Shown: piece by piece, positions 8,251-62,276 of the stretch | Numbering within the stretch: position 1 is the stretch's first letter | Layout of the letters: each line of letters opens with the position of its first letter | From: Schmidtea nova | Taxonomy: Eukaryota | Direction of reading: 5' to 3' | DNA length: 64,000 nt | Assembly: GCA_044892505.1 (NCBI GenBank) | Contig: CM097883.1 | Location: 441,068,001 to 441,132,000, forward strand | Notes under the pieces: generated by a model | What the model saw: only the letters and a program-made list of their open reading frames with translations | Told to the model about the DNA's origin: nothing | The model's database searches: none | Made by a program: the position numbers and the translations under genes

Positions 8251-8280
8251 CAAGTCAAGTGAAGGTGCTTATTGAATCGA

Positions 8281-8645: not shown

Positions 8646-8658
8646 AATAGTAATTGTA

Positions 8659-10418: not shown

Positions 10419-10499
<81 letters not shown>

Positions 10500-12106: not shown

Positions 12107-12118
12107 GGTGTCAGAAGT
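12106..12118 (+). promoter_or_regulatory. Primer-binding site, probably tRNA-Leu(CAA)
   Basis: TGGTGTCAGAAGT directly follows the LTR, overlapping it by 1 nt. From recall, it is complementary to the 3' end of eukaryotic tRNA-Leu(CAA) (...ACUUCUGACACCA). Confidence 0.7.
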
Positions 12119-12291
12119 CAACACACACACACACTCGCCGTTTTTTTCAAGCGTTAACGCCTTTAGCATACCTATTATAGAGGTATAAGGATTAACGTCA
12201 CTTTTAGCCGAACACAGTAGGCTATATCCTTTTGTCAAGCTCATTTTTTTAACATAAAAAACAACATAACAAACAACAACAACAAAACTAA

Positions 12292-13383: not shown

Positions 13384-13391
13384 GGTCACCA

Positions 13392-14402
13392 ATGATAGCA
13401 CCCACATCAGGTGACAAAAATAACACATTCTGGGTGCACAGCAATAACATAGATTTTTTAATAGACACCGGCTCGGTGATCTCACTACTGCCCCATTCTA
13501 TGTACAAAAGTGCCAACAAAACAGAAAAACCATTAACAGCAGCAAACGGCACAAACATCAAAACCTTCGGGCAACGACAAATAAATCTAAACATTAACCA
13601 AAAGAACTACAACTGGACATTCACAATAGCTGAGGTCCAACAAGCGATAATAGGAGCAGACTTCCTAACAAATTACAACCTCCTAGTGGATTGTAAAAAC
13701 AAACAAATAATAGAAAATAATACTAATACTACAACACCACAGCACAACACGAACAATGGAGGAAAACCGAAAATAGACATTGGTGTTATCCAAATGGATC
13801 CAATGAACTACAAATCAGAAATAAATACAGAAATAAATACAGAAATAAACACAGAAATAAATACAGAAATAAATACAGAAATAAATACATTACTGGAAAA
13901 AGCCGACAAACTTATCGCACCAGTAACTTTCAACGGAAAAAAACACATAAAAAATAACGAAGAAACAAATAAACAAATAACAACCAAAAACAGGGAGAAC
14001 ATCGAAAACAAATTAAAAGGAATACTGAAAAAGAGACCAAACTCAGAGAACGACGGAAAAATCATACTAACAACCGATCATTTACTAATAAAGAAGCCAT
14101 ACTCAAAAGGTCCCGAAGATGAATACGAAGGCCCATTCAAAATACTCGAAATCAACAAAAACGTGGCCACAATAATAAAAAACAACAATAAAACAAGAAT
14201 AAATTTACGCAAAACAAAACCGTACCACAACAACCGAAACACATTAAACAACCCTACAAAAGACAAAGCACCGACACAAACAAAAACACAACCAAACCAC
14301 AAACACATCACATTCAACCACAAAAACACAATAAAACTCTTTGACAAGGATTCAATAATCACACCCCTATACATAAAACGATACAGCGAATGCCTCAAAT
14401 AA
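13392..14402 (+). CDS. Truncated pol: aspartic protease fused in frame to a low-complexity linker and the integrase GPY/F C-terminus
   Basis: FLIDTGSVISLLP and AIIGADFL (retropepsin), a (TEIN)n 12-bp repeat linker, and EYEGPFKILE...INLRKTKPY (GPY/F-like). No RT (YxDD), RNase H or integrase DDE motifs. Confidence 0.8.
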   Translation: MIAPTSGDKNNTFWVHSNNIDFLIDTGSVISLLPHSMYKSANKTEKPLTAANGTNIKTFGQRQINLNINQKNYNWTFTIAEVQQAIIGADFLTNYNLLVDCKNKQIIENNTNTTTPQHNTNNGGKPKIDIGVIQMDPMNYKSEINTEINTEINTEINTEINTEINTLLEKADKLIAPVTFNGKKHIKNNEETNKQITTKNRENIENKLKGILKKRPNSENDGKIILTTDHLLIKKPYSKGPEDEYEGPFKILEINKNVATIIKNNNKTRINLRKTKPYHNNRNTLNNPTKDKAPTQTKTQPNHKHITFNHKNTIKLFDKDSIITPLYIKRYSECLK

Positions 14403-14675
14403 AATACACTAACATACACAAGCAAAACACAAGCACAACACAGTGAAATGTACAGTTTTATTTTTTTTTTTGTAAATATGTAAAAGTTACAGATTTTTAT
14501 GCTCTATGTAATTATGTAATCTATATTGTTAAATTGTAACACAACAAAACAAAACAAAAAAAAAACAAAACATAATAAAACAAAAAATGAATAAAAGTTT
14601 TAAGTTACCGGTTGTATAAGTATGTAAAATACAAATAATTTGTTAATTTTTATGTTCTTGTTAACCTCCGGTTTT

Positions 14676-14684
14676 AAAGGGGGA
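14676..14684 (+). promoter_or_regulatory. Polypurine tract
   Basis: AAAGGGGGA immediately before the 3' LTR start AGTTAT at 14685. Confidence 0.75.
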
Positions 14685-15575
14685 AGTTATGTGGATGTCA
14701 TATTTTATTGTTATTTTTATGTTGTTATTTGTTTATTATATGGTAATCGCCGTCATTGGTGTGATCGGTGCCTTTACGGTCACCGGGGCCCCCCCCCTTT
14801 TTCTGGCGAGTGGTGATTTTTATTATTATTATTATTATTAACATTATGATTATTAAAAATTAAAAAAATTCAAATTGAAAATGCAAAATTGAAAATTGAA
14901 AAAAAAAATCAATACACGAATAACCAAGGATAATATTAAAGAGATAAAATTAATTAACGAAAAAACTGATTTTTCCGATTTTGCCATACAAGTGTATTTA
15001 AAAACTGGAAAGGAGCAATCCCTGGATCTATTATCATTCAATATCGCGAACCTGGATCAACTGAAATTATTGAAAGAAGCAAAGATTGCTGAAAGAAAAT
15101 TCAAGCCAATTTTATTTATACAGAAGATTTATCAAAGTTTATACAGTTTTCCAACTTACAATCTCCCTCGTCAACGGTTGCTAAATTGTAAAGAAGCAAA
15201 GATTGCCGAAAGAAAATTCAAGCCAATTTCATTTATACAGAAGATTTATAAAAGTTTATATAGTTTTCCAATTTACAATCTCCCTCGTCGACGGCTGCTA
15301 AATTGTAAAGAAGCTAAAAAAGAAAAACTTTGCAAGTAACCTTTCGTGGTTTTTTTATTATCTTGTTATTAATAAATATTAGTAATTTAAAATAGTGCTG
15401 TTTATTTTATTGTAACTTATATACTTTTTATATTTAATTGTTATTATATCATATCAGTAACCGCACAACACAGCACACACCCCGAGTGTCGACACATTGC
15501 TAACGTCTGACTCTCTCGGGATCTACAACTCCTCTACACATCCACTCAATCAACAAATTAAAAAACACAAATTGT
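14685..15575 (+). repeat. 3' LTR (end lies in the gap)
   Basis: Direct repeat of the 5' LTR, with only a handful of substitutions and microsatellite-length differences seen. Confidence 0.9.
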
Positions 15576-15748
15576 NNNNNNNNNNNNNNNNNNNNNNNNN
15601 NNNNNNNNNNNNNNNNNNNNNNNNNNNNNNNNNNNNNNNNNNNNNNNNNNNNNNNNNNNNNNNNNNNNNNNNNNNNNNNNNNNNNNNNNNNNNNNNNNNN
15701 NNNNNNNNNNNNNNNNNNNNNNNNNNNNNNNNNNNNNNNNNNNNNNNA

Positions 15749-16980
15749 AGCTTGACGATTCTCCAACTATTTTGAATAGCATTCCTTCTAGTACTTTGTG
15801 CATCAGTCTCTGGAATGTCGAAGGGGCTGTTGATAATCTAAACGGTAGTCTATTAACGCAAAATTGTCCTTCTCTTGTACTGATTGCAGTCATTTCTTGA
15901 ATTTCTGGAGCCAACTTCACTTGATAGTACGCCTGGCTTAAATCAATTGACAAATTTTGCGAGACAGTCTAGTAAGAATTTGGAATTAGGCATTAGAAAT
16001 GATTCCTTTTCTATTATGGCATTCAATCTACGATAGTCTTCACACATCCTGATGGATCCATCTTTCTTTCCTACTATAACTACTGGGGCATTCCAAGGAC
16101 TCTTGCAACATCGAATAACATTTGCTTTCATTAACTCTTTTATCAGTTCTTCAATCTTTTTCTCGATGTGCATTGGTTGACGACTAGGATGTTGCATTAT
16201 TAGGCCTCATGTTATCCACATCTCATGTCGAACTAAATTTGTTAATATCAGATCAAACTTCGATGCCATAAAGATTCCGCCGTATTTCCTGATCATTCCT
16301 TCATTGTCTTTATTATTCTCACTTACCATCGCCATCAGGGCTTTATTTATTCTTTCTTCATCAGTGTGAATGTTGTTTATAAATGAAGTTTCTATATTAT
16401 TGATTTTCACGAACTTTACTCCAAACTCTTTCGTTGTATCAATACCTCCTATGAATTCGGGCTTGATCTCTTTTACAACCACAACTATGATAATTTTTGT
16501 CTTTTGATTCCATGTGGCCGATATATTCATATACCCCATTGCTTCTTCACCTCCAGATGAAAACACGCCGCATAATAATATAATACTACGTTGAAGGTCT
16601 GGTTTCCCTATTCTCTCCCATAAATTCTTGCCCATGACTCTTACTGACGCTCCAGAGTCCCATAACATATCTACTTCTCCATTATTCAACATTACTTTAC
16701 TACAACTTCTTCCATTCTTCGTTTGATACATCTTTTTTTCTGCCTCATCTCTTCGTCATTCATTTCTTCTTTCACAATTTATTGTCTTGACTCCACCGAC
16801 AAAATGAAACCCATAGAGTCGCTGATGTTTTTACCGTATTCTCTAAATGTATTATAGTTCTCAGGAACATTGTATTCTATCTTCCAAATCGCGGTGAGTC
16901 ATTCTGAAATTCTGACTGTTTTCGGTGTAATCTCTTCTTTCAGATTTGGAATCTTTTTCTTCTATGCACGATATTCCATT
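15749..16980 (-). pseudogene. pol: Decayed Ty3/gypsy gag-protease-RT fragment
   Basis: VDMLWDSGASV (protease), KSPWNAPVVIVGKKDGSIRMCEDYRRLN and IDLSQAYYQV...RLPFRLSTAPSTFQRLM (RT), broken by stops and frameshifts. The upstream part continues beyond the pogo insertion (18875-18930) with PBS-like TGGCGACC after ...TTAACT. Confidence 0.85.
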
Positions 16981-16981
16981 A

Positions 16982-18872
16982 CCATATTTTCGCGCATATA
17001 ACCCGCGGGTTATACAAGTTTTTACAAACAAACGGTCGCTGTGCGGGGTATACAAGGGTGCGGGGTTTACAAAAATAATTTTACTCATAAAACTTTTACC
17101 TTCAATAGAGGTTCACGCATTTATGCAATGTGTTGAAATCTGTAGTTTCTCTGTGTGGTTCTCAAATGTAAAACGAATACTTTATGAACATCTCATTAGA
17201 AGTAAATTTACAAATAATACACGTTTAGAAAACAAGTAATACGGATGCGGCAGAGAACATTTAATATAATCAATTGCCATAAGTAAGCAAGTAAACCAAT
17301 TCGCTAGTAATGTCCAAACCTATAGTCCGCATTTCATGCAATACATCCATAATCAATCACCATTACTGTCACTGTCCTCGCTACAGTTAGTGAAGCCATC
17401 GAAACTTGTATCATATTCACTGTCTTCATCAAGGAAGCGAAGCATGTTGGCAGCAGTAGCTGGGTCATAAATTGACTCTTCATCACTATCATCATCGTCA
17501 GCTGAATCGAAACATTCCTCTGCTGCTGGCTCTGCATTAACTTCACTACCGGTCACCGTTAGCAGGCCAGCCTTAATGAAACCGTTGCGAATAGTTTCTG
17601 TGCTGATTTGCTGCTACGCTGCCAGAACCCATTTGCATACTTCAACGTACGTAGCACGTCTCTGCTTTCCAGCTAGTTTGAATGTGTGTTCGCCTTCACT
17701 CATCCATTTTTCCCATTCATTGCGGACAAAACACTTGAATGGATGATTAACAGCAATATCAAGTGGCTGAAGCTTACATGTTAAACCGCCAGGAATGACA
17801 GCAATGTGAGCACCAGTCTTATCGATCTGTTTGTGAACAGATGTCTCCTTGTGTGCAGCCATTGCATCAAAAATTAACAACGATTTTGGCATAAAGTATC
17901 CACCCTGTCTAGCACGATAGCATCTTTCGGTCCGCTCTTTCATCACATCAGTGTTCATCCATCCTTTTTTGTTGCACACAACAATCACTCCCTGTGGCAG
18001 TTTCTCACGTGTCATTGTCACTCGTTTGAATATAACCATTGGTTTCAACTTCTCACCAGCAGCTGAGCATGCCAGACCAACTGTGAAACATGTGCGCTCA
18101 TGTCCAGTTGTGGTAATAGGAACCGTTTTAGAACCAGTATCTGCGACAGTGCGAGTTGCTGGAATATCAAAAGACATAGGCACCTCATCCATGTAAATGA
18201 CATAGCAAGGATTTAAGTTCTGTTCTGCAATATCTCTTCTAACAAATTCCTGAAAGTCGTCTACTTTCTTTTCCCAATTCTCTGGCAGTTTCTGGCCAAC
18301 CGTTGTGCGTGCACGAACGGAAAATTGATTAAGTCTCATGAATTTAAAAACCCAGTTGATGCCACCAGTGAAATTATCTATCTTCATTTCAGCAGCCATT
18401 ATTTTCGCTTTCAATTTAATACCAACTGTTGACACTGTCCTGTTGTTCTCACGCTGAGAGCGAACACATGCTGAAAAGTTTGTCTCAAGCTGCGGCCATC
18501 TAACCTTTCCCCCTAGACGAGCTCTTTTGCGTGGATTAATCTGCTCTAAATTTTTAATGTCTTTTCGCCATTCACGAATAAATTTTTCATCAACATCATA
18601 CCGTCTCCCAGCGGCTCTATTGCCCATTGTTGCAGCAAGCGCACAAACTTGTAGCTTAAAATCAGCGGTATAAGACTTGCGCTTTGGCATTTTTAGGCGT
18701 AACAAACACTACTGAATACCTATAATGAATGTTAATGATTAGTTAACCTTGTACATATGCGGGGTATACATGGGTGCAGGCTATACGATTTTTTTACTTA
18801 TTATGTAATTTGTGCGGGTTATACGTGTGTGCGGGTTATACGCATATGCGGGTTATATGAGCGAAAATACGG
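16982..18872 (-). mobile_element. pogo-superfamily DNA transposon (POGK/Passer-like), 1891 bp
   Basis: 25-bp TIRs ccatattttcgcgcatataacccgc / gcgggttatatgagcgaaaatacgg (2 mismatches). TA TSD at 16980-16981 and 18873-18874. Confidence 0.92.
17353..18690 (-). pseudogene. pogo transposase, about 445 aa, DD35D, with one in-frame nonsense codon
   Basis: Brinker-like DBD (RKSYTADFKLQV...IREWRK), CENP-B HTH, and YMDEVP / LIFDAMAAH / QPLDIAVN with 35 residues between D2 and D3. A TAG at 17614-17616 (expected Trp) is followed in frame by QQISTETIRNGFIKAGL and an acidic tail. Confidence 0.88.
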
Positions 18873-19312
18873 TAATGTCTTTGTTGATTTCGAAACTGCA
18901 TTGACATTCTGATTTTCAGCGTGGTCGCCAGTTAAATCAAACTCCGTCATAAAATTATTTAATTAAAATTTTATAAAATGTGCCAAATAATCAATTATAT
19001 AAACACAGGCTAATATAAATATCCAACTACAATAATAAAATATTTACAATTGAATTAATGGAAAAATTGCTGTCATTAATTGTAAAGCTATTTAAATATT
19101 TATAGTGCCAAGAAAATAATATATTTTTGCTCAGTGAAATACAAGGTCATACAAATATTACATAATTTAAAATTATATGGAATACACACAAACTTACAAT
19201 TCAGGAAAATAATGTAATGTGTTAATGACTATTAAAAATCTTCAATTTCTTTCACCAACGATCAATTTTCAATTTTATTTATCTTTTTCGTTTTTTGTGA
19301 TACATCATATCT

Positions 19313-19660
19313 AACAAATACATTGATCAATGGTCGAAATTAAAATACGATCTTTGAAAAGTAAACTACTCATTATTTAATCAGTAATAGCATTTTATTA
19401 AAATTAGAAAACACATAAATCTGCGAGTATATTGAATATTAAAAGTAAAGACGTCTCTAAAACAAAATTTACGCCTAGGATTTAATTATAATCTTTACAT
19501 TCTTCTACAAAGTAGCCTTTTATCATCGATGACATGCAATCATTTAATTTCAAGTCAAAATGAATTGTTTTTGGAAATATGTTCTAATTATTTTTATAAT
19601 TATACAATCAAATTTATCGAGACCAGAACTGGCATTTGCCGTTCTTCATAAACAAAAATA
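19313..19660. repeat. Third partial copy of the duplicated block
   Basis: Direct repeat of about 21190-21545 and inverse of about 9030-9378. Confidence 0.85.
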
Positions 19661-19827
19661 AAATTATTTACAATTTAATTTTTAGGAATATTTCTTTATT
19701 TCTTTCAAATGTAACATTTTTAGTGCCGATAAATAATAATACAAGTACTACAAATTTGTTGGATGAAGAGTGTAAGCCCATAGACACATTCATCCTATCA
19801 GAAAATTATATGTTGTGGGGTTCAACA

Positions 19828-20148
19828 AGTATAGAGTCAATATCTACGCAGAACCCGTCGGTAAAATCAACAACCAAGAATAATCAAATCCCAATACCAA
19901 CCATTTCTTACCACACAATTAACAACAAAGAATAATCAAATCCCAATACCAATCATACAATTCTAACACCATTAGGACATTAACATCTATTTAACAATTG
20001 ATCATTTAACAATTTAACATTTGATATTTACCTTTTAACAATTGATTTAGCATTTGATATTTATTGTGAATATGTATATGTTTCATGAATGTATTTTTTA
20101 TAATAATTTATTTAACATTGGATATTTATTATGAATGTGTTTATTGAA

Positions 20149-20214
<66 letters not shown>

Positions 20215-22316
20215 CAATATTTTAAATATATATTTTATGAATTTCTTATTAACATTTATTTATTTTAGAATGTACTTCTTAATGAATTTATTTTATTTCA
20301 ATGTGATATTAAGTAATATCAAAATTAAGTGCAGGAAATTTAGAATTGATAATTTTGGCAACATAATTGCAGTATTGATAATCGGCAGGGCCGGATCTAT
20401 GGGTGGAGCGAGGGAGCGACCGCACCAGGCGCCAGAATCACACTGAAAAAAAGGCGCCTTTTCGATCAAATTGAAGAATAATTATTCTCAACAAAACTAT
20501 CATACTGACTGTTATTATAACACGTATTTCTACATAATAATCTATATTTTGATAAATTTGCATTTTTGAGCGCTTTTCCTCTATATATATATATATATTA
20601 TTACAATAATGTTAAATTTTTATTGAACAAAATTCAAATTTTTCACATTGCTTTGAAACTGTCTCTTTATTGGCGAAAAATCAAATTTAGACTTTAACAG
20701 AAATTTCGAATTTATTCAATATAGGCGCCTTTTCAAGAAGTTTGCTCCAGGCGCCAAAATAGTACCATCCGGCTCTGATAATCGGGGTAAATATCAAATT
20801 GAAATTATTTTAATCGTTGCATGGAAAATTTTGGTATATAAGGAAACCAAAAATTTCAAAATTCACCCACAACATTTTTATAACAGTTTTTCTGTTAAAA
20901 AATTAGCGATTGAAACATCTCAAAGGTTAATTCTGCGAGATAATTAAAACCAAGGACAGAACAAAAAGGTTCTACAATAATTTAATTAAATCAAAAAGTA
21001 CAATCACTACATAACACGCAACCAATAAGGAAAATATTTTTTTTTAAACAGAAAATTACATAATCGTTTGAAATTCAAAAACTTGGACAAGTGTACTTTG
21101 GTAATTTTTATTTTTAATAAAGGTTTTTTTACAATAACTCTTGACTAGATCTAAAAATCTTAGACCTCAACAAATTTAACATTCTCTTAAATTCAATGGT
21201 CGAAATTAAAATACGATCTTTGAAAAGTAAACTACTCATTATTTAATCAGTAATAGCATTTTATTAAAATTAGAAAACACATAGATCTGCGAGTATATTG
21301 AATATTTAAAGTAAAGACGCCTCCAAAACAACATTTACGCCTTGGATTTAAGTATAATATTTACACTCTTCTACAAAGTAGCCTTTTATCATCGATGACA
21401 TGCAACCATTTAATTTCGAGTCAAAATGAATTGTTTTTGGAAATATGTTCTAATTATTGTTATCATTAAACAATCAAATTTATCGTGACCAGAACTGGCA
21501 TTTGCCGTTCTTCTATAAACAAAATTAATTCTATTTTAACTGATTATTAAATATAATATTTTTGTAAAGGAAAGTTATTGTTACTAATAATATATAACAA
21601 TCTGTATTTTCACAATCAAAAGTGATATTTTTATTAAATTTGAGAGTGGTTTCACAAAAACCAATCATTTTAATTCCTAATAAAACCAATTTGTATAAAT
21701 TTGTTTATTTTATTGTATCCAGCCCCGTTATCAGCAATACTTCACGCGACCTTGTACTTTATGTCACAATTCGTTATACTCTTTAATAAATGAGAATATT
21801 GTTGAATTTTAAAGTCGTAAAGCTTAATTTTTTTCCTAACTTACCACACATGTCATACCTTAGTATCCTTTCCAATCTCATTACTTTGCGTTTGTTGTTT
21901 CATTGTTTTAAATATTTTTATTCAATTCAGATAATCTTAAATATATTATAATAATAGTTGACATTTAGAAATAAAAATTTATATTTATGAAGATGAAAAA
22001 TACAAATTTTACTGACATATGGAAGTTTAATTTTTATAATTTTAAGTATTCGTTATAAGACATTTGCATTGCCCCCTAGGAAGTTATAATAATAGTAATA
22101 ATCTGTAGGCACTAAAGCAATGCTTCTCAAAATTTTTAATGTGTCGGATCGGCAGAAAATTTTACATGGAGACTAAAGACCAGCGCACTATTTATCCTGT
22201 ATTGAAGGGGGGGCAAATGATCGCCGAAAGTACTAGTGCGATGCCATATTGCTAGGAAAAGTGGAATGAGTCGAAGCCCCAGTTGATAACGGTCTGTGAT
22301 GTATTGGGCATAAAAT
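19828..22316. repeat. Copy B of the inverted duplication
   Basis: Reverse complement of 6919-10706, minus the copy-A insertions and plus the MITE at 20386-20777. Confidence 0.9.
20386..20777. mobile_element. hAT-type MITE, 392 bp
   Basis: TIRs cagggccggat / atccggctctg with a perfect 8-bp TSD ataatcgg (20378-20385, 20778-20785). The empty site is present in copy A (about 10245-10252). Confidence 0.9.
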
Positions 22317-27930: not shown

Positions 27931-29919
27931 TTAATAATAATAGTAAATACTCCTGGATCACTTTTAATTAAACACCAATTATCATCAGCTATACCGTCAG
28001 CCATTTTAAAAGTATATTAAAAAATAATAACAAGGTAAATTCAAAAATTATATTTCAGATGATTATCGATCAAAAAAACTCAAAGAATTTTCGAAACAAG
28101 AAACCCCAAAATAGTAAAAGCCCAACAGTAATTAATTTTGATCTTTTTTGTTTTGATCTTTTTAATTTTAACCAATTAAAATTCGCGCACACAAAATAAT
28201 TACCACACAGACAAAACCCTATTCGTTGCACAGTATGCGGTGCACACAACAACAAAAGAAACAACACTAAAATATAACGAAAACAAACAGCACAAACGCC
28301 GTTGGCAATGAGGCTCGCAATTTGAGTCATGATTGACCACCGGATGTTCGTCCTTTACGTGGTGCGCCCAATAAGTTGTGAGACTAATATAGAAATAATA
28401 ATAGTAAAAAAATTGATACAGACATATTTAAACTTCAACATATATAGGTAAAGAAAATGTATTTTGTTTTAATAATCCATTATTGTTTAAGTATATTTTT
28501 GCGAACATTCGAAAAATGCCTCTGGAAACTATTCAATACCGTAGCGTTATTCGCTTTCTTTTTCTGAAAGGAAAAAATATAGAAGAGGTTCTTTCTGAAC
28601 TGAAAGCTGTTTACCAACAAGAGTGCTCATCCACAGCAACAATTTATCGTTGGTTCAATTACTTTCAGAGTGGTAGAACCTCCGTGGTGGACGAAGAAAG
28701 ATCTGGAAGACCCTCAGAAATTGATGAAAAAATAACGCAAAAGCTGCAGACAATCGTGCAAAACGAAAGAAAAATAACGACGAGAGAGCTTACAACCCGT
28801 CTAAATGTGAGCAAAGGCACTGTGCATACTCTCTTCACTGAAAGTGGTATTCGAAAACTATGTTCCCGTTTTGTGCCACGCTTTTTAACTGTGGAAATGC
28901 GACAACGATGCTTGAAATGCTGCTTGGAGAATCTGCAGATCACGACCGTTTCAGACCGTTGGAGACCGTTTCATTGATAATATCATCACTGTGGACGAGA
29001 CACCGTTGTCCCTTTATGTCCCCGAATCTAAAAGAGAGTCTTAAAGAATGGAAACTGCCAGGAGAAAGCAGTTCACTGAAAATGCGGTCGTCAACTTGCC
29101 ACCGAAAGGTTCTCATGCTGACGGTGTTTTGGGACGCCAATGGCATTATTCTGACTGACTTTACTGAATCCGGCGTGAAGATCAATAGTTCTTACAACTC
29201 CAACATTGTGCAGCAAGCAAGGAAGGCACGACGCAAGAGCAGAGTGTATGATCTCTATTTTTTACACGATAATGCTCCCATCCACATCAGCAGCATTTCC
29301 ATGGCCAAAATTGAGCGTTGCTGGCTCAATTTGCTTCCCAATCCACCATACAGCCCGATTTGGCTCCCTCCTATTTTTTCCTGTTTAAACATCTTAAGAA
29401 GTATCTGTGGGGCCAGGTAAGTAGAGAAGGGGGAGCGCCCAGAAACAAGAACAGACCCCCATAAAAAATGTTTACCCCCCCCAAAAAATATTTTTACCCC
29501 CCTGTTCTTGTTTTTAATTTTTATTAAAATNNNNNNNNNNNNNNNNNNNNNNNNNNNNNNNNNNNNNNNNNNNNNNNNNNNNNNNNNNNNNNNNNNNNNN
29601 NNNNNNNNNNNNNNNNNNNNNNNNNNNNNNNNNNNNNNNNNNNNNNNNNNNNNNNNNNNNNNNNNNNNNNNNNNNNNNNNNNNNNNNNNNNNNNNNNNNN
29701 NNNNNNNNNNNNNNAATTAATTTTTATATTAATTAATTTTAATTAATTAATTTTAATTAATTTTAAATTTATTTATTTTGATTTTATTTATTTTTATTTA
29801 TTTTATATTAATTTAATAATTTTAATTTATTAATTTTAATTTAATTAATTTAATTTTAATTAATTAATTAATTTTAATTAATTTATTTTTAATTAATTTT
29901 AATTTAATTAATTAAAATT

Positions 29920-30780
29920 TATTTTTTGTACAGGATTTTTGATCTGGTTATTTTGTAAAGGATTTTTACTCTGGTTATTTTGTATAGGATTTTCTACTCC
30001 GAGATTTTCTAGGGCAAAAAGGGACTCTGGGTTTTTTGTACAGGAATTTTTAATTAGAAATTTTTATCTGGATTTTTGAATACAATATTTTAGTCTGGTA
30101 TTTTTGTATAGGATTTTTAGTCCTATTATTTTGTATAGGATTTTCAACTTCGAGATTTTCTAGGACAAAAAGGGACTCTGGGTTTTTTGTACAGGGAATT
30201 TTTATACATGAATTTTTGGTCTGGTATTTTTGTATAGGATTTTGGTCTGGTTATTTTGAATAGGATTTTCAACTCTCAGATTTTTCTCAGGCAAAAAGGG
30301 ACTCTGGTAATTTTGAACTGAAATTTTAATGGTAAATAAAAAACACGTGTAAATTTTTTAAACAAGTAAATTATCTTTAAAATATTTTGTATAGGAATTT
30401 CTACTCCCAGATATTTTCTAGGGCAAAAATAGACTCTGGTAATTTTGAACTGAAATATATATTTTAATGGTAAATAAAAAACACGTGTAAATTTTTTAAA
30501 CTAGTAAAATACATTGAAATTATTTTGAATAGGATTTTCAATTCCCACAATTTTTTAAACATTGATTTTTGGTCTCGTAATTTGTATAGGAATTTTGGTC
30601 TCGTATTTTTGTATAGAATTTTTTGTTCTGGTATTTTTGTATAGGATTTTTAGTCTGGTTATTTTGAATAGGAATTTCTACTCCGAAATTTTTCTCGGGC
30701 AAAAGAGACTCTGGTAATTTTGAATATGATTTTTGGTCTCGTATTTTTGTATGGGATTTTTAGTCTGGTATTTTTGAAAA
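29920..30780. repeat. Subterminal degenerate tandem repeats in the left TIR
   Basis: Recurrent attttgtataggatttttagtctggt and ggcaaaaagggactctgg motifs. Mirror copy at about 37440-37617 runs into a gap. Confidence 0.8.
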
Positions 30781-32816
30781 TAATATTTTGGTCTTGGAAA
30801 ATCAAAAAATAAAAAAGTGGTCAGAATTCAATAATTTTTATATCAATCTACTGAGAATTGAAAGGCAAACAAAATGGTCAAAAATTAAAAAACATGAAAA
30901 CTTGATCTCATCCGACCAATTTTTACATGTAAAAAGGGTCAACTCGGGGAATTTCCAAAAATCAAAAAATGCTCAGAATTCAAAAATTTTTATACCAATC
31001 TACTGATAATTGAAAGGCAAACATTTATGGTCAAAAAGTAAAACCTGAAAATTTTGACTTATCAGACCCAATTTTTGACGTAAAAATGATCGACTCGGGG
31101 AAAATCAAAAAATCAAAAATGCTCAGAATCAAATAATTTTTATACCAATCTACTGAGAATTGAAAAGCGAACAATAAAGGTCAAAAAATTAAAATCATGA
31201 AAAAATCAAATTTTTATACGGAAAATGTCAGTCTCAGTAAAAAAGGGTAAAATACATAAAAACGTGGAAATATTTAAAAGATTTTTAAACTAAAAAATTA
31301 AATCTAAATAAATTTATGATAATTTAATAAAAAAGTAAATAAATTCTATACGTATTTCAAAACTAATTTCAAAATAATTCACTCATTATTTTGTATTGAA
31401 TTTATCGAGTAAAATGGTACATTAAATAAAAGCATGGAAATAATAAGTAAATTAAAGTTAGAATTTTAAATTAATTTGTACTGGATTTATGAAAAATGGT
31501 AAAGTAAATAAATTAAAGATAGAATTTTAAAAATAATTATGAATTTAAGGAGAAATAGAATTATAAGTAAATTAAGAATAAAAAAGTAAATTAAGAAAGA
31601 CGTGAGTTTTAATGTCATAATTTTAAAATGAATTGGTTTTAAATGAACTTTTTAAGGTAATATTTGAAAAATGTGAGAATAATTAATTATTTTTGAAATT
31701 TTTTAAAGTAAAATCTTTTTAACAATAAAGTCAATGTAGAATTTTTTAATCAATAAATACAAAGTAAATATTTTTTCGCAAGTAAATATTTTTCACAAGT
31801 AAAATTTTTAACTAATAAATACAAATCTAATTGTTTTTCAATATGATGTTTTTAAAGGAAATGATCAAATAACAACAAATAAATGTAGTAAATAAAACAC
31901 ATGTAAATATTGAATTTATTTAGAATAAAAATAGTTATTAAACAAGAGTTGTTACAATTTTGTATACTAAGTTAAAAAATATCGATTAATGACATAAATT
32001 TTTAAAAATAAACGTAATAATTGAAAATATGGAAACAAGTAAATAATAATAATAATAAGTAACGTCTATCAATCAAAATACCAACAATAAACCGATCAAC
32101 TAACTAATAATCTTATTACACACACAAATCAACCACTGACTAGTAACTGATCAAATGCCAACTGAGTCTATCCACAAATCAACAATCGACTAGTTACTTT
32201 CCAGTTACCAACTGACTCTATGTATTAACCAACTAGGAAAATTGTTCCATGTGTCAATCTCTTCCTATTAACTATATATCAATTAATCCAATCCCCTTAG
32301 TTAACAAATAGTACAATTCCTTTCTTACTTACTTTATCTATACTAACCAACTAACTAACTATACATACTAACCAGCAACCAATACCTTACTAACCAACAA
32401 TACATCAACCAACTAACTCTTCACATGAACCAACAAATTCTATTAATTAATCTTACACCAACCAACCAACTACATTAACCAACTAACTAACTAAACACTC
32501 TAACTATCAACCAATTCCTTACTTCCCAACTAACTCTTCTCATTAACCAACTAGTTCTATTCATTAATCCTATACTAACTGTAGTGGTCTAGAAGGTCGA
32601 TATTGAAGTTTTTCTCAAAATATCAAAGGAACATGGTCTGCCTCAAACTTTCACTTTATTCAGTGATATTAGATTTTCAACAGTTCATTTTAATGACGAG
32701 TTAACTCCAAAAACAATCAAAGCACTAATAATTGAAGCTTCAGAATGCTCTTGAAATCATGTCTATTTAAAATCGAACTTATCATGATATATTTGCTCAA
32801 TTATCTAAGAAAATTC

Positions 32817-33134
32817 AAAAGCTTTTCAAGTTACTGAATATAATGAATTTAAAAAATTTTCATTTTTTATGTAATTTCTTACCTGAATTTATTTATTGTA
32901 ATTACCAATTGAAATTTTCTCCAATTATTGAACCTTTTTCAGTGGAATTCTCATTAAAGATTTTACAATTCTAAATTTAGAATTGTTAAATCTTTAATGA
33001 GAATTCCACTGAAAAAGGTTCAATAATTGTAGAAAATTCAATTGGTAATTACAAAAAATAAATTCAGGTAAGAAATTACATAAAAAGATGAAAATCTTTA
33101 AAATTCATTGTATTCAGTAATTTGGAAAGCTTTT
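32817..33134. repeat. 318-bp loop-less palindrome (159-bp arms)
   Basis: Centre ctaaa|tttag at 32975/32976. The arms are symmetric out to aaaagctt / aagctttt, with scattered mismatches. Confidence 0.92.
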
Positions 33135-33434
33135 AAAGATGAAAATAAAAATGATGAAACATTCATTCGAATGATGTATTTATCAAGGAAAATATTCAAA
33201 TTGATAGTTTCTTTAGTTGAAAATACACAAAGGGTAAATTTATTCAAATTTCACTGAAAAGAAGTTGAAACTGGGATGGTCAATTGAAGTGATTAATCTA
33301 TTGAGAAAATCCGTTGAAAAGTAGATGACGAGAACCATTCTGTTTTAACACATCAAAGCTAATAAATATTTTCACCCATTTAGACAATTTTTCAGTCTAT
33401 TTTCCACTAGCAGAACCTTCCTAGCAGAACCTTT

Positions 33435-33730
33435 AGTAGCAGAACCTCTTTTGTGATGGTTTTTACCTGTAAAAGCTTCATACTATATATTTTCACTCAT
33501 ATACCAATATTTTCTTTTGAATTTTCATCATTTTTTATCCCGTAGCTGATTATTTAGTATCAGAACATCATTTGTGATGGTTTTTACCTGTAAAAGCTTC
33601 ATACTATATATTCATTTATATACCATTATTTTTGAATTTTCATCATTGTTTTTATCCAGTAGCAAAACATTTAGTAGCAGAACATTTTGTATCAGAACCT
33701 CTTTTGTGATGGTTTTTACCTGCATAAGAT
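33435..33730. repeat. About 130-bp tandem duplication, about 2.3 copies
   Basis: tttgtgatggtttttacctg recurs three times, twice followed by taaaagcttcatactatatatt. Confidence 0.75.
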
Positions 33731-34679
33731 TCAAATTATATTTTCATGATTGCAGTTTATGTGAAACCCAATAAAATACGCATGTTTGAACCAATGGGAT
33801 TTTATTATCAGCCGACAATGTTGAAAAAGGTATCGTCAATGCTGAAGTGAATTGAATATAAGAGAATCTGATACCAGAATCCGATGACAAAAAAGTTACA
33901 CTCGGTAGCACAGTTTAGAGTGGTTAATAAAAATGTTTAATAAATAAATATTTGTATTGAAATTTTTGAATTAATTTTTATTATTTTTAGAATTTATTGA
34001 CAATCAACATAGAAATTATGCAAGAAAATATGATTAACTATTTTAATGAAGAAAACATGAATAATTATTTTATACAAGAAAATATATCCAAAAAGAATAG
34101 AAATAAAAATGTACGTATCTTTTAAATTGTATATATTTATTTTTGTAATAACATTCTAAAGTTAAATTCAAATTAATTGAATATTTATTTATTTAATCCT
34201 TTAAATTAACGGAGTGAAGAAATAATTTGAACATGTAATAAGAAGTATCAAGAAATATTTCATTAGTTGCGTATCTTATCATTTTAATAGGATTACCTAG
34301 TTAACGGGGTTTTTCTAATGGTTTTTAAATTAATTTTTCATGTTAGTTATCAAGTGAAGAATTAGACGAACAATGATTTCAATAGAGCTTTGGATTAAAA
34401 GTCATTTGCATTTTAAATATATTCAAAATTTTAAGAACTTTATTTAATAAAAAATTTCATTTTAACTACGTAGATAATAGTATACCTTTTTAAAAACTGA
34501 TAATCAACTAAAGATTAATTCAATTATTCAAAGTAATAAATTTAATTTTATGACACGACATTTAGAATCAGTTAGTTTTAAATATCATATCTAGTTAATG
34601 CGTAGAGTTAATTGATACGTGGAACAATTTCCTTAGAGTGAAGATTTATTTGTTTAATATATAGAGTCAGTTGATATCC

Positions 34680-35960
34680 GATTAGTTGATTTAACTAGTA
34701 GATTGTGAATAGAATCAATTAATATTTAATAATTAACTAGTCTGTTGTTGATTTATGAATAGAGTTAGTTGGTTAATGTATAGAACTAGTTAGTTAATGT
34801 ATAGAAGTAGTTGGTAAGTACTTGGATGAATAGTGTGTAGAGTGAATGGCAGGTTGGTTAGTATAGGATTAATGAATAGAACTAGTTGGTTAATGAGAAG
34901 AGTTAGTTGGGAAGTAAGGAATTGGTTGATAGTTAGAGTGTTTAGTTAGTTAGTTGGTTAATGTAGTTGGTTGGTTGGTACAAGAATAATGAATAGAACT
35001 AGTTGGTTAGTAAGAGATTAGTTGCTGGTTAGTATGTATAGCTAATTAGTTGGTTAGTGTAGTTGGTTGGTAGATTGTTAGGTATAAGATTAATGTATAG
35101 AACTAGATGGTTGATGTATATAACTAGTTGGTTAGTAAGGAATTGATTGCTGGTTAGTATGTATAGTTAGTTAGTTGATTGGTTAGTAGACTGATAGGTA
35201 TAAGATTAATGGATAGAACTAGTTAGTTGATGTATATAACTAGTTGTTTAGTAAGGAAGTGGTTGCTGGTTAATATGTATAGTTAGTTAGTTAGTTGGTT
35301 GGTAGACTGATAGATATAAGATTAATGGATAGAACTAGTTAGTTGATGTATATAACTAGTTGGTTAGTAAGGAAGTGGTTGCTGGTTAGTATGTATAGTT
35401 AGTTAGTTGGTTGGTGATTTGTGAATAAAGTTACTTGGTTAATGTGAAGAGTTAGTTGGTTGATGTATAGAAATCGTTGGTTAGTAAGAAATAGATTTCT
35501 GGTTAGTGTGTAATGAGTGAGTGGCTGGTTGGTTAGTATAAGATTATTGAATAGAACTAGTTCGTTAATGTAAAGAACTAGTTCGTTAACATGTAGAAGT
35601 ATTTGGTAAGTACTTAGATGATTAGTGTGTAAAGAGTGAGTGGCTGGTTGGTTAGTATAGGATTAATGAATAGAACTAGTTGGTTAATGAGAAGAGTTAG
35701 TTGGGAAGTAAGGAATTGGTTGATAGTTAGAGTGTTTAGTTAGTTAGTTGGTTAATGTAGTTGGATGGTTGGTGCAAGATTAATTAATAGAATTTGTTGG
35801 TTCATGTGAAGAGTTAGTTGGTTGATGTATTGATTGTTATTAAGGTATTGGTTGCTGGTTAGTATGTATAGTTAGTTAGTTGGTTAGTATAGATAAAGTT
35901 AGTAAGAAAGGAATTGTACTATTTGTTAACTAAGGGGATTGGATTAATTGATATATAGTT
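34680..35960. repeat. G/T-skewed degenerate repeat (gttagttggtta-like) with internal block duplications
   Basis: The block at about 34857-34975 recurs at about 35651-35770. The complementary C/A-skewed copy lies at about 32090-32579. Confidence 0.8.
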
Positions 35961-38900
35961 AATAGGAAGAGATTGACACATGGAACAATTTTCCTAGTTG
36001 GTTAATACATAGAGTCAGTTGGTAACTGGAAAGTAACTAGTCGATTGTTGATTTGTGGATAGACTCAGTTGGCATTTGATCAGTTACTAGTCAGTGGTTG
36101 ATTTGTGTGTGTAATAAGATTATTAGTTAGTTGATCGGTTTATTGTTGGTATTTTGATTGATAGACGTTACTTATTATTATTATTATTTACTTGTTTCCA
36201 TATTTTCAATTATTACGTTTATTTTTAAAAATTTATGTCATTAATCGATATTTTTTAACTTAGTATACAAAATTGTAACAACTCTTGTTTAATAACTATT
36301 TTTATTCTAAATAAATTCAATATTTACATGTGTTTTATTTACTACATTTATTTGTTGTTATTTGATCATTTCCTTTAAAAACATCATATTGAAAAACAAT
36401 TAGATTTGTATTTATTAGTTAAAAATTTTACTTGTGAAAAATATTTACTTGCGAAAAAATATTTACTTTGTATTTATTAATTAAAAAATTCTACATTGAC
36501 TTTATTGTTAAAAAGATTTTACTTTAAAAAATTTCAAAAATAATTAATTATTCTCACATTTTTCAAATATTACCTTAAAAAGTTCATTTAAAACCAATTC
36601 ATTTTAAAATTATGACATTAAAACTCACGTCTTTCTTAATTTACTTTTTTATTCTTAATTTACTTATAATTCTATTTCTCCTTAAATTCATAATTATTTT
36701 TAAAATTCTATCTTTAATTTATTTACTTTACCATTTTTCATAAATCCAGTACAAATTAATTTAAAATTCTAACTTTAATTTACTTATTATTTCCATGCTT
36801 TTATTTAATGTACCATTTTACTCGATAAATTCAATACAAAATAATGAGTGAATTATTTTGAAATTAGTTTTGAAATACGTATAGAATTTATTTACTTTTT
36901 TATTAAATTATCATAAATTTATTTAGATTTAATTTTTTAGTTTAAAAATCTTTTAAATATTTCCACGTTTTTATGTATTTTACCCTTTTTTACTAAGACT
37001 GACATTTTCCGTATAAAAATTTGATTTTTTTATGATTTTAATTTTTTGACCTTTATTGTTCGCTTTTCAATTCTCAGTAGATTGGTATAAAAATTATTTG
37101 ATTCTGAGCATTTTTGATTTTTTGATTTTCCCCGAGTCGATCATTTTTACGTCAAAAATTGGGTCTGATAAGTCAAAATTTTCAGGTTTTACTTTTTGAC
37201 TATAAATGTTTGCCTTTCAATTCTCAGTAGATTGGTATAAAAATTTTTGAATTCTGAGCATTTTTTGATTTTTGGAAATTCCCCGAGTTGACCCTTTTTA
37301 CATGTAAAAATTGGTCGGATGAGATCAAGTTTTCATGTTTTTTAATTTTTGACCATTTTTGTTTGCCGTTCAATTCTCAGTAGATTGATATAAAAATTAT
37401 TGAATTCTGACCACTTTTTTATTTTTTGATTTTCCCCGACCAAAATATTATTTTCAAAAATACCAGACTAAAACTCCCATACAAAAATACGAGACCAAAA
37501 TATTGTATTCAAAAATCCAGATCAAAAATCCTATTCAAAAATTCCTGTACAAAAAACTCAGAGTCCCTTTTTGCCCTAGAAAATCTCGGAGTGAAAATCC
37601 TTTACGAAATAACCAGANNNNNNNNNNNNNNNNNNNNNNNNNNNNNNNNNNNNNNNNNNNNNNNNNNNNNNNNNNNNNNNNNNNNNNNNNNNNNNNNNNN
37701 NNNNNNNNNNNNNNNNNNNNNNNNNNNNNNNNNNNNNNNNNNNNNNNNNNNNNNNNNNNNNNNNNNNNNNNNNNNNNNNNNNNNNNNNNNNNNNNNNNNN
37801 NNNNNNNNNNNNNNNNNNNNNNNNNNNNNNNNNNNNNNNNNNNNNNNNNNNNNNNNNNNNNNNNNNNNNNNNNNNNNNNATTAATTAAATTTAATAAATA
37901 AATTAAAATAAATTAATATAAAATAAAAATAAATTAATTTAAAATAAATAAATAAATTAAAATAAAATAAAAATTATATAATTAAAAAAAAATTAATAAA
38001 AAGACTTCATTTAAACAAAATAAAAAATAAAAATAATATTCACTTCATTTAAACAAAAATTTTAATAAAAATAAAAACAAGAACAGGGGGGTAAAAAAAT
38101 TTTGGGGGGGGGTAAAAATATTTTTTAGGGGTCTGTTCTTGTTTCTGGGCGCTCCCCCTTCTCTACTCATGTGTTTGCCAACAAACATGATTTAAGAGTA
38201 GCCGTGGAGAGTTTTCTGAGAGAAAAGCCTCCAGAATTCTTCAAAAACGCCTTCGAAAACCTTGTTATGCGCTGAGAAAATTGTGTCAGTGCAGAAGGAA
38301 ATTATTTTGAGAAATGATGCCTATTTACCATGCTTGTTCTAAATACAAAGTTTTGTGTTGATATCTTAAGTCTTTCTATTTTAGTCTCACGACTTATTGG
38401 GCGCACCACGTACCTTCGCTGAAAATAATTACAAGGTTAGATAAAACTCTCAAATCGTGCTTGTTTCCCTTCAAAGCTTTGTCTTTGTTTAATTTCTCAT
38501 AAAATACACTATGCCTATAAATATTTTTCGTCGATTCGTATTGAATATTTTTTCATTTCCCTACCATCATTTTTACTTAGATTTTTACATAGATTTTTTA
38601 TTATCTCTCTTTACTTTAACATCCTTCATCTTTATATAGAAAATTATTCCTGATTTTTCAGGAAGATTTACCATTAAAGACAGCAAAATAAAATTCTTTT
38701 AAGGAAACCAAATCTTTAATATAACTTTTTTCCCTTAATATATCTTGCGGATGATCCTCCGGCCATTCTCTCACATTTACGTGAGTATGAGGCTAGATTT
38801 CTATGTTGCATCGACAGTATGGAGTTGGACAGGTCGGGAGACTTCATTCTAAACTCGCAAACCCACGCTGACGAACCTGCAACGCAACAAGCTGGGATAC

Positions 38901-48624: not shown

Positions 48625-49504
48625 CTGTAAATAAAAAATAAGTCATCTAAAATGTACACTTTATTAATGATGAAAATATAGGAATTAAATCTTGAAGATA
48701 ATGAAAACCTAAGTGTTAAGGTTAAAAATAAAGGGTAACATTCAAAGTAAACAAAAATTCACTAAAACAATTGCCAAAATACTTTTGACTAAGAATTCAA
48801 AAATCAAACTTTACAAATGTATTTACATAAGATACTTGATAGGGGGTCCAATTTTGGAATCCTGGAGAATTTCTGATGATAATAATCATGAAAGTATGCT
48901 CAATATAATCGCAGGAGTGCCGATTAAGTAGCAAAAGGTCTAGCGGATTTCTAATTTTTTAAAGAAAGACTGTTTGCCTAAGAAAACTAAGTAATCAGAA
49001 ACAGTAGGTGAGTGGGATGCAGAGGGGTATTAGAGGTCAAGTGTGAATAGCCTTTTGATATATTCTCCAATACGCGTCTTTCTGTGACACTGTTCCCTTT
49101 TCCATAGTGAAACGAAAGATGAACAAATATATAAAGTTTGTACCATATATAGTAGAAGACATATGGAAATATTTACATCGAGATTTATCTTGTTAAGGAG
49201 CATAGTGAAAAAATGTACTCAAATAAACTAGATCCGCAACCAAAGATTTATAAACATGTAATTCTACAAACATCCCATCCTATAAAGTATTTCGAGCCTT
49301 CACACCAAGAGATTGAAACAACATTTGACGCTTCTCAACGCTGAAGTGATTCACTTTCATGAAGTGTTCAAAACATTTTTTATAAATTTTGTAGACAGAA
49401 AGAAAATGTTTCTTGTTAACTCAAATCAGTTTTGCTTCATACGGTAATAAAGTTTTGAAATTAAAAAAAACTGTTTAAAATAATTCTCCATTGAAATCTC
49501 CAAT

Positions 49505-49885
49505 CCTACGGACTGACAATGCCCAAACTCATACACACGAAGGGTGAAGCAGAAAATTCAAGAACTGAAAGGCATCGAAGTCATCCCCCCATCCAGCGTA
49601 TAGTTCGGATCTTGTCTCTTTTGATTATCATTTGTTTCGGTCTCTTTCATATTTTATTCGAGGACGCTTTGGTTCATAGGAATATGTCAAAAATGGATTC
49701 GGAGAATCTTTCGCCTTCAAGACACTTGAGTGGTATTGCCATGGGATTGAGCTATTGGCAGAAAGATAGTTTGAGTTATTGAAAATGGTGGACAGTATTT
49801 CGATGAATAATATGATCCGTGTTATAAAAATTTGAGTAAAAAATATATTAGCATAAAAACATGAATAACTTTTGACTCAACCTAG
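49505..49885 (+). pseudogene. 3' fragment of a second mariner (DD34D-type) with its right TIR
   Basis: DNAQTH, then (frameshift) KIQELKGIEVIPHPAYSSDLVSFDYHLFRSL...GIELLAER*, followed by a mariner-like end aaaaacatgaataacttttgactcaacctag-TA. Confidence 0.75.
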
Positions 49886-52800
49886 TATAGGGATCTTGGC
49901 CACATTATGGCGAGATTTTACTTTATAGACAGTGATTTAACTACAAATTTTATGACTATAATCAAAATTTATTTTGGCACCCCCTTGACAGTTGAATGTT
50001 TTGAGTGAATGAAATAAGTTATGAAATGATTTGCGTAAGTTTAAATAAATATAAAAAAAATATTTATAGACAAATTAAAATAAAATTGTAATTGAGATTT
50101 TTATTATTAATTATATCAAAAATATACAATAGACATTCTTAATCTGCAAAACATGTGAAAACTACGGCATTTCGTCTCTCGACTAGGGACTCGGAACGTC
50201 CTAAGGAGGCTCAAGGCTTTTCTCTCTCAACAGATCATCTAGTCACTAATCGAGTTGTTTTTCATATATACTACTCCGTCTATAATGCCGATTCTACAGT
50301 AATTTTACAGAATATAATATTCGGTTCCCGGACGTAAGCGCAATTGATAGTCTGTTTGGGCTTTTGTCCTCATGGGCTTTTGTCCGCTGCGCTTTTATAA
50401 ATTGCGCTTCTGTCCGGTCACCATAATATTCTCATGACACTTATAGTATGATTTTGTCGAGTGATGGATTGGTTGAATATGGGTTGTTTTATATAAATTT
50501 AGTTGTGTTTTTAACATCTGAAAATTAAAAAAATAATAATTTTATATGGACATTGGCATTTACGAGGCCCAAAACATTGCTTGCCTTTGCTATTCAATTG
50601 TAAACCGCTGTTTAAAGCCAAAAATTGGAAAATTTAGAGCTAATTTGGAAAAAGATATTATGGTAAGATTACAGAAAATTACCTAAAAAACAAATTCGAA
50701 TATTTTATTAATATGGACAAATAATTAAATAACTCATACTTATATACTTTTCTCTTGTTTCCTGATTTCACACATTCTCCTAGTCTAATGTCTCCGAATG
50801 GAATGTTAAACTCGTAGCGATTTCTTNNNNNNNNNNNNNNNNNNNNNNNNNNNNNNNNNNNNNNNNNNNNNNNNNNNNNNNNNNNNNNNNNNNNNNNNNN
50901 NNNNNNNNNNNNNNNNNNNNNNNNNNNNNNNNNNNNNNNNNNNNNNNNNNNNNNNNNNNNNNNNNNNNNNNNNNNNNNNNNNNNNNNNNNNNNNNNNNNN
51001 NNNNNNNNNNNNNNNNCAGTCTTGGGTATTTATCAATTAGTCGGTGTCTGACTCCTTGGTGTTCTTATAGAATTGATTCAAGAAAAACCCAACACAGTAA
51101 AATTTATTCGAAAGTATGACACTTTACAACACTCTTACAACTATTTGACACAATTTTTTGATAATAATAAGTCTCTTTACACAATTTCAACAACTTTTTT
51201 TCTTACAGCTTTTTCTATTGAACGTATGGATAAGTCTCCTAAAGGAAAATATCTTTTCTGGTACGCTTTAAAGAGTTATTTTAATTCTAACTACTACTGA
51301 TTCTCGACCTGTCATCGTGCAAATATTTAACTAACTTTTGCCTTTGATCACTCTGGCAAACTTTGGAATTTTCCTCTCCTTTTTATATTGTCCAGCTTGA
51401 TGAATTTTTCTTATCTGATTAGGTTGTCTGACGGATGCCTCTCAAGTTGACAACTTCCTTATCTAAGTCATTTTAATAAAATTATTAATTACTTTTTCTC
51501 AATCGGAATTTTCGCGTTTCGTTTAAAATAAATTTCCCCGGGGATAATTAACTGTCTTGCCGATCATCCGAGCTTCCCACGCTATTTGGGTTTCCTATTA
51601 GCCAATTAACTCTTAATCAATTTAATAATATTTTAATTCGTTTCTTCTGGAGACCCCCATTAATTTTATTTTATCATTTTTGGATTCATATCACTATTCG
51701 GCATACATCCAATTTATTCCCCCTCTAAATCTAAATTCTTAAAATTTCTAAATTTTAATTCATTTTTTATGGTTTAATTATTACTTTAAAAATGTTTATA
51801 TTTTATTGATTTTTATCAAGTTTTTGTGTGTTTTATTTTTGTATTTGAGCTTATTTTATTAAACCCCAACCTATTTTTTGATTTTCTTGATGACAGTTCT
51901 TTTTAAATGGACATATTTAAAAGATAGATATATAAAAAAACATATTTTGAAAAATGTATTAAGGGGAAATTTGTAATGCATGTTTTCTGCAAACAATATC
52001 AACTGTACACAAGTTCTGGAAAAAAATAATTCATTTAAAAAATTCGGAATTATGTATGGTCTAGAACAGAATTTGGGTGTTTATTAAGGAGTCATTGCCT
52101 TTTCTGCCTGGAAAGCAAGTTATAGATAGTGAAACATAACTGAAAATTTTAAATATTAAATTAAAGCTCCCGGTTTTAAAACTTTCAATGAGATCTCATA
52201 TGAAAAGCAAGGTTTCCCAAACAAGACAAAGTCTGGTGTCACTTGATAGAAGACATGTCTTTTTATGGCTTGGATATATTTAAGACCTCAATGGATCAGT
52301 TAATCATAATTTTTAAAAGAATATAATATATAATTTTATAAAATAGCCAAAACATTTAAAACGATAAATTTTGATGACGATTCTTATATTTTTTATCTTT
52401 ATTCTATACTCGTTTAATTTTTCATATATGATGGGCGAAATGCCACATATCTTGGAGAAGACTGACCGTATTTTCTGTACTCGAGTGTTAGAGCATTTTC
52501 AATTGATGATGATTGGTTATTATTTTATAGGTATATTTATGTTGGGATGGTGGAATCAGAAAATAAATTTGCGTAAACGTGAGGAAAAACAGAAAAAAAT
52601 AAATTATTTAATCAATAGACACATAATCTAGTAGAGTTAAAACAAAACAAAATATAAATATTTAAAAAATAAATAGAATACATTATAACTATAATTTTCA
52701 AATTTATCTTTTATGTACAAATAAATTGTCGATTACGCCTAAAGGCATTTCAACGTAGATTAATATACAATGGTGCACTCGAAATACAATCAAATTAGAT

Positions 52801-62249: not shown

Positions 62250-62276
62250 TACTAGCCATTTATTAGTAATCACTCG

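Follow-up and report, generated by a model that had tools for sequence, protein, structure and literature searches.

Autonomous Polinton/Maverick elements are 13-25 kb long, encode pPolB, integrase, ATPase and capsid genes and carry terminal inverted repeats (TIRs) of 46-1,447 bp in vertebrates and 100-1,500 bp in general (PMC8097293, PMC10748475). Vertebrate Mavericks are known to have the termini (AGT)2 or (AG)3 and target-site duplications (TSDs) of 6 bp (PMC8097293), and Polintons have been reported from the planarian Schmidtea. In the current analysis we have studied a stretch of 64,000 nucleotides of Schmidtea nova (assembly GCA_044892505.1, contig CM097883.1, positions 441,068,001 to 441,132,000 of the forward strand), referred to as the window, in which an element of 8,748 bp (29420-38167) with long inverted arms interrupts a mariner transposon. 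This element shares with the autonomous Polintons the AG...CT ends, in their AGTAGA//TCTACT variant, a 6-bp TSD, a target hexamer that looks favoured and long TIRs, and differs from them in its size of 8.7 kb, in arms of 2.5-3.2 kb and in being without pPolB, integrase, ATPase and capsid genes. With a probability of about one half, it is a defective Polinton that was rebuilt by copying of one end with capture of host DNA, was inserted by a helper and was altered later by conversion between its arms.

Several described systems resemble parts of this locus. Polinton-1N1_DR (PMC9341505) is, to judge from its name, a gene-poor element of the Polinton group. Butterfly Polintons have TIRs of ~2 kb and include polB-less carriers of cargo that have lost core genes and apparently kept their mobility, but their arms encode hexon and adenain and their cargo is made up of other transposons (10.1101/2025.02.07.637071), in contrast to the non-coding arrays and the host exon found here. 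Nematode Mavericks with wasp/krma cargo have acquired intron-bearing host DNA beside one TIR (10.1101/2022.07.12.499685); these are whole genes in complete elements, whereas the present element is gene-less and holds a decayed exon piece. Among other elements, the arms of Galileo 2RT copies grow through tandem expansion and recruitment of internal DNA and are longest in non-autonomous copies (PMC3573991), and Pack-MULEs hold host fragments between their TIRs (PMC6431247). Both belong to other superfamilies with other ends and TSD lengths, and the Galileo arms reach up to 1.26 kb; the Galileo paper on recruitment of arms by repair mentions Polinton repeats as well (PMC3573991). Non-autonomy among Polintons, arms of 2 kb and cargo in Mavericks have all been published before. 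The letter N in Polinton-1N1_DR presumably marks non-autonomy. Searches of the open literature, to the exclusion of subscription papers and Repbase, listed no Polinton that is devoid of genes, has non-coding arms of 3 kb and holds a piece of a host exon.

The element starts with AGTAGAG (29420) and finishes with CTCTACT (38167), and the terminus occurs once per end within the window, which holds a single copy of the element. An earlier note, made from the letters alone, had given these termini together with arms spanning 29420-32579 and 35651-38167, and its coordinates are confirmed. It had also regarded the ends as those of a Polinton/Maverick, and the end hexamers as well as the target hexamer are present in the Maverick table of PMC8097293. 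Counted as whole words, AGTAGA is listed there 28 times and TCTACT 23 times, and the two are paired, along with 6-bp TSDs and core genes, in Mavericks of viper and axolotl. Seven rows have CAGGTA as the 5' TSD and five have CAGGTG, the hexamer being found on both sides in six and four of them, respectively. Other hexamers occur 16 (CATGTG), 7 (CAGGTT), 4 (CAGGTC), 1 (TACCTG) and 5 (CACCTG) times, and eleven further ones 2, 0, 2, 0, 0, 2, 3, 4, 0, 0 and 5 times. The ten rows with CAGGTA or CAGGTG on both sides exceed an expectation of ~0.7 from the 1,345 elements that have ends, or of 1.7 when all 3,511 loci are counted (P 2e-9 to 1e-5; 1e-6 to 3e-3 with a doubled background), in a vertebrate table that keeps orthologous rows, not all of them independent, and with control hexamers picked ad hoc. 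The insertion site thus appears to resemble favoured Maverick targets, and the counts suggest that Maverick TSDs may be enriched for CA(G/T)GT(A/G), which would point to a target preference of the integrase. Such a preference is not mentioned in the passages of the Maverick literature covered (PMC8097293).

We regard the Polinton ancestry of the element as highly probable. Long internally repetitive arms and captured host fragments are typical of Galileo and Pack-MULEs too (PMC3573991, PMC6431247), and arm length is unreliable as a classifier (PMC3573991). The element could accordingly be a foldback non-autonomous member of another cut-and-paste superfamily, with Polinton-like ends by chance and with a protease remnant that is of host Ulp1/SENP or transposon-borne origin; the top matches of the protease-like piece described below are to Peptidase_C48, and none is Polinton-named. 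We consider this very unlikely. The duplication is of 6 bp, in contrast to 7 bp in Galileo, and the IS3EU/GingerRoot families have 6-bp TSDs but TA or TG ends. Their termini (TA..TA or TG..CA) are absent here, the ends being AG..CT, and shifting the ends outward by 2 bp destroys the duplication. The exact end and target hexamers, on the other hand, are found in Maverick tables.

The insertion has been dissected with the aid of the interrupted mariner. Removal of the element and 6 bp leaves a mariner of 1,299 bp, as calculated from its ends; this length, the ends and the TA flanks agree with the mid-gene insertion into a 1299-bp mariner that had been proposed, and the two halves rejoin in frame. 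Of 72 candidates 14 proved to be mariner relatives, the closest being an intact protein designated P0002, from which the interrupted mariner differs by 25 residues out of 342, equivalent in simulation to ~3% per base, by three frameshifts and by one stop. P0002 and the four other cluster members covering the site read G-Q-V-F there, and the empty site, earlier read as H-V, is corrected to Q-V. Residues 298-299 are encoded on each side of the element, so that exactly two codons are duplicated relative to P0002, and the TSD is therefore 6 bp long. The copies agree at four of six positions, a weak match by itself (chance 0.04), and the length consequently rests on the protein relative; of the proposed duplication caggta/catgtg, it is the length that stands and not the force of the match. 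A further mariner relative, P0012 (59% identity), lies on a 1,298-bp contig of an assembly labelled Sphingomonas and is probably a eukaryotic contamination.

The longest N-free stop-to-stop frame inside the element is of 87 amino acids, and the element encodes nothing functional today. No match to pPolB or to a retrovirus-like integrase was obtained in it with Pfam, PHROGs and representative-protein searches, and no frame in it is of sufficient length for an intact ATPase, capsid or protease gene. Because its longest frame is so short, the element is not an autonomous Polinton; the end and target hexamers and the possible protease remnant support its earlier designation as a non-autonomous Polinton derivative. 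Its terminus has no match in prokaryotic genomes.

The arms are separated by a spacer of 3,071 bp and are of unequal length, the left one having roughly 0.6 kb of extra tandem array; their unique part has a guanine-plus-cytosine (GC) content of 16.5%. The TIRs had been described as greatly expanded, of about 3 kb and different at only scattered bases. Their lengths of 3,160 and 2,517 bp are indeed above the usual range, though Polinton arms of ~2 kb are already published, and it is only the inner ~1.8 kb that is 99% identical, the outer parts being 5-7% apart. In the outer arms substitutions are found at 6 of 109 aligned bases of the terminal block and 8 of 120 of a sub-terminal unit, while the first 46 bp of the left end are identical to the right end. 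The inner arms (30710-32579 vs 35651-37521) show 21 differences in 1,872 columns, with substitutions amounting to 3/65 in 30731-30795, 5/440 in 30796-31235, 1/1,094 in 31236-32329 and 6/250 in 32330-32579. Against ~100 substitutions expected at the outer-arm rate, the inner arms have 12 in 1,784 bp, and these are unevenly spread and fewest in the middle (chi-square P 1e-4).

The visible array unit of the right arm matches best the first of five units of the left arm and then jumps to the last, which indicates a register shift where the high identity begins. The minisatellite breaks off at 32579 in the left arm but continues beyond the right one, and this suggests that the right end served as the donor of the arm copy. 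The arms must also be weighed as a possible product of assembly. Each has one run of N, the 99% segment is bounded on both sides by tandem arrays, and the identity peaks in mid-segment and falls at the edges, as collapse would give. Ends and insertion would then be real, and the near-identical long arms partly the outcome of collapse or copying between repeats of a multi-copy family. That seems quite unlikely, since the arms are in register to 2 bp over the N runs (440 vs 442) and yet differ in 21 columns, the inner junction lies in unique sequence within one N-free stretch, and the mariner halves rejoin in frame. The register favours a correct layout; some bases may still be collapsed.

The spacer, or core, is not devoid of recognisable sequence. 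The absence of a long open frame, as had been claimed, holds, but besides the hairpin, the repeats and decayed coding-like bits the core includes an identifiable exon of a CYRI/FAM49 gene. A search of one frame of 32593-34119, a frame other than the protease-like one, against 1.84 billion representative proteins gave a single match, to the last 50 residues of a protein designated P0001. P0001 is a CYRI/FAM49 protein (Pfam E 1.5e-47, PDB E 2e-41), and the core piece itself matches PF07159 with E 4e-4, which is below the curated cut-off, and weakly the three PDB sequences of CYRI-B (E 0.03-0.07). Five of its nine changes, counted by eye, are at residues common to P0001 and vertebrate CYRI-B, as expected for a pseudogene. 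The AG directly before the matched codons suggests that the piece may have been captured from genomic DNA. Long six-frame scans of the core and arm with Pfam and PHROGs gave no match and are insensitive, the Pfam scan having missed even the CYRI exon; when the core was divided into 78 short windows, CYRI was recovered (E 4e-4), along with four weak matches (E 0.018-0.048) that are taken as chance. No Rfam family was found at gathering score. A ribosomal eL22 match (E 0.42) and the idea of a fibre-like motif were dropped.

The core has several layers of rearrangement, and an older degenerate duplicate of 35951-36107 lies at the start of the minisatellite 34587..35892. Short GT-AG patterns at 33068-33330 (+) may represent further captured pieces of host genes, and the 121-bp unit at 33386-33746 (-) reads like a repeated small exon with a short intron and may likewise be captured; no relative was found for either. 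A second captured gene at 33105-33251, where such a GT-AG pattern is present, is unproven and also had no relative.

Between these repeats, the frame at 33749-33877 may, somewhat more probably than otherwise, be the remnant of a Polinton protease. In a protein language-model atlas its top matches are to Peptidase_C48/C5 clusters, with a best score of 0.90; the ten best family-bearing matches are all of one clan, and one listed cluster is viral with Peptidase_C5 in 12% of its members. Shuffled proteins, however, reach 0.9 in 4-10 of 100 cases, with clan agreement in a third. A strand-plus-acid motif, shaped post hoc, occurs once in the six frames of the window, at this very place, and in none of 3,000 core shuffles; its short version occurs in 32 of 3,000. 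The spacing of 29 residues from the acid to a Gln fits that of Polinton proteases. A 64-residue model of the piece is poor (predicted template-modelling score, pTM, 0.24) and its fold searches are uninformative. The read-through with X at the point of a His codon had no Pfam match, the piece had no match in prokaryotic genomes, and no protease motifs were found in the accessible parts of the literature supplements searched. The His codon just ahead of the frame has been discounted as evidence, as it belongs to the 121-bp array.

The degree of decay of these parts bears on the order of events. Of the 50 residues of the CYRI piece 9 are changed, a higher proportion than the 25 of 342 found for the mariner (P 0.026); the protease-like frame has 2 stops in 43 codons as against 1 in 342 (P 0.034). 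The cargo thus appears more decayed than the mariner, which favours a form that was already defective before insertion. The two mismatches between the TSD copies have P 7e-4 at 0.7% divergence and 0.05 at 6.4%. Since the TSD, the outer arms and the core hairpin are several percent apart, as compared with 1/1,094 in the middle of the arms, the insertion appears to be several percent old, with a younger identity of the inner arms. The earlier proposal that template switching in protein-primed replication made the arms is insufficient alone, because both arms would then have been equally alike at insertion, yet their divergence is uneven.

These observations are consistent with the following history of a defective Polinton. 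The parent would have lost its interior, with survival of one end and ~4 kb of adjoining DNA, namely the protease-like remnant, the minisatellite, the arrays and the terminus. The other arm may have been rebuilt or extended as a copy of the surviving end, begun in the shared tandem array but out of register. Copying would have stopped within the minisatellite, where the last exon of the host CYRI gene and the fold-back hairpin were joined on, much as when a break is repaired and the template is switched. The derivative, its AGTAGA ends both preserved, could then have been inserted into the mariner, with duplication of 6 bp, through a retrovirus-like integrase supplied by a helper Polinton, a movement in trans that we infer from one copy. 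After insertion the ends, the TSD and the core would have decayed by several percent, and the inner arms may have been re-homogenised by conversion between them.

A full-length Polinton may instead have inserted itself and lost its interior in place, when a break was repaired off the opposite arm and filled with host DNA, so that the 8.75-kb form never moved. This accounts for all the evidence of the ends and the TSD; the 99% identity of the inner arms requires an event after insertion regardless, among the Maverick loci of vertebrates 96% are fossils in a degraded state (PMC8097293), and Galileo arms have been extended by repair from the other arm (PMC3573991). The cargo nevertheless seems more decayed than the mariner, which must pre-date the insertion, and the core has several layers of rearrangement. 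Decay in place is hence possible but rather doubtful. Several points weigh against insertion of an already defective Polinton. It is read from a single copy and its helper is postulated. A Polinton protein is unconfirmed, as the protease-like piece had no match in three fold searches or in Pfam, PHROGs, NCBIfam and PDB, a choice of databases without a Polinton-specific profile, and the divergence of CYRI would be overstated if P0001 belongs to another species. The TSD copies match at 4/6 positions (P about 0.05 at 6% divergence), and the Maverick TSD table is limited by its vertebrate scope, partly dependent rows and ad hoc controls. The raised divergence of the arms is confined to tandem repeats and to subrepeats rich in homopolymers, and the first 46 bp are identical, so that the clock of the outer arms is soft.

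Table 1. Features of the element and of the interrupted mariner (positions within the window)
Feature	Position	Strand	Remarks
Host mariner, whole	28358-38410		TA on both flanks; 40-bp ends with 3 base differences
Mariner left part, with terminal repeat and codons 1-299 of the transposase (three frameshifts)	28358..29419	+	tblastn with P0002; Pfam Transposase_1 E 4e-11; ends; frames
Target duplication, left copy CAGGTA	29414..29419	+	codes for residues 298-299 of P0002
Left terminal block: AGTAGA end motif, 21-bp subrepeats within 12-bp stem	29420..29530	+	fold z-score -4.3; 1/200 shuffles as stable
Left arm, 3,160 bp: AT-rich block (one N run), 27/138/151-bp arrays, 152-bp array, unique AT-rich stretch, truncated minisatellite	29420..32579	+	
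Left arm inner part, 98.9% identical to 35651-37521, abrupt end within minisatellite	30710..32579	+	
Decayed last-exon piece of host CYRI/FAM49 gene; AG ahead may be a splice acceptor	32593..32742	+	match to P0001, 82% over 50 aa (E 2e-13)
Fold-back hairpin, 324 bp, arms with 9/160 aligned bases different	32813..33137		
121-bp unit, about three copies, 15-bp subrepeats	33386..33746		
Possible clan-CE (adenain-like) cysteine protease remnant, two in-frame stops, without the catalytic Cys segment	33749..33877	+	lead only
Strand-biased minisatellite (21- and 116-bp periods) crossing the inner boundary of the right arm	34587..35892	+	
Right arm, 2,517 bp, finishing TCTACT	35651..38167	-	
Target duplication, right copy CATGTG	38168..38173	+	tblastn with P0002
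Mariner right part: codons 298-346, one stop, terminal repeat	38168..38410	+	tblastn with P0002; ends

The window has 25-30% GC, is repeat-rich and contains eight runs of N. Exons of a KSR-like kinase gene are found at about 42000-51000 (-), with 6 matches among 30 candidates, the three best being tapeworm proteins (54-60%); these matches make a flatworm host probable, and the base composition would suit a planarian. A second large interrupted inverted pair (6919-10670 and 19305-22316), with blocks 89-97% identical and no clear TSD, encloses long terminal repeat (LTR) and pogo-like insertions. The young LTR element at 11216-15575 has a 666-bp block 99.85% identical, gag-like and protease frames, and no reverse transcriptase between its repeats; fragments of a second LTR retroelement (15558-16755, -) include protease and reverse transcriptase pieces. 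Long open transposase frames of pogo/Tigger-like (17614-18708, -) and Tc1-like (60717-61721, +) type, a palindrome of 196 bp with 96% symmetry (43163-43358), and one 22-bp minisatellite at three sites in both orientations (56320-56559, 58901-59064, 62124-62251) have also been identified.

The borders of the element are of further interest with respect to splicing. The left junction, CAG/GTAAGT (29411-29425), is a consensus splice donor, and the right end (38143-38173) is 80% pyrimidine followed by CAT/GTG. Precise GT/AG splicing as of an introner fails here, the right junction having CAT and not CAG; with an intact TSD, the element would have carried intron-like borders. Such elements could conceivably be spliced out precisely because AGT ends and a CAGGTR TSD give a donor on the left and a pyrimidine tract with CAG on the right. 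Six rows of the PMC8097293 table combine AGTAGT ends with a CAGGTR 5' TSD, and in five of these rows the TSD is preserved at either side. A search of the open literature listed no Polintons acting as introns, though it did list a paper on integrated viruses as carriers of introners. A mobile 'Pack' family of Polintons devoid of genes, to which this element would belong, that is, copy-back defective genomes with both arms from one parental end, helper-borne, capable of exon shuffling and a potential source of giant introns, is an unlikely though conceivable extension of these observations.

If the locus is a single fossil, it is of little significance. The origin of defective Polintons and their movement in trans are sparsely documented in the accessible literature. 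The element shows capture of a host exon beyond Pack-MULEs and Helitrons and records the extension of an arm. The enrichment for CA(G/T)GT(A/G), if true, would mean that targets are preferred and would offer a way for introns to be gained. A derivative that has no genes but has kept both ends delimits the cis sequences that a helper would require.

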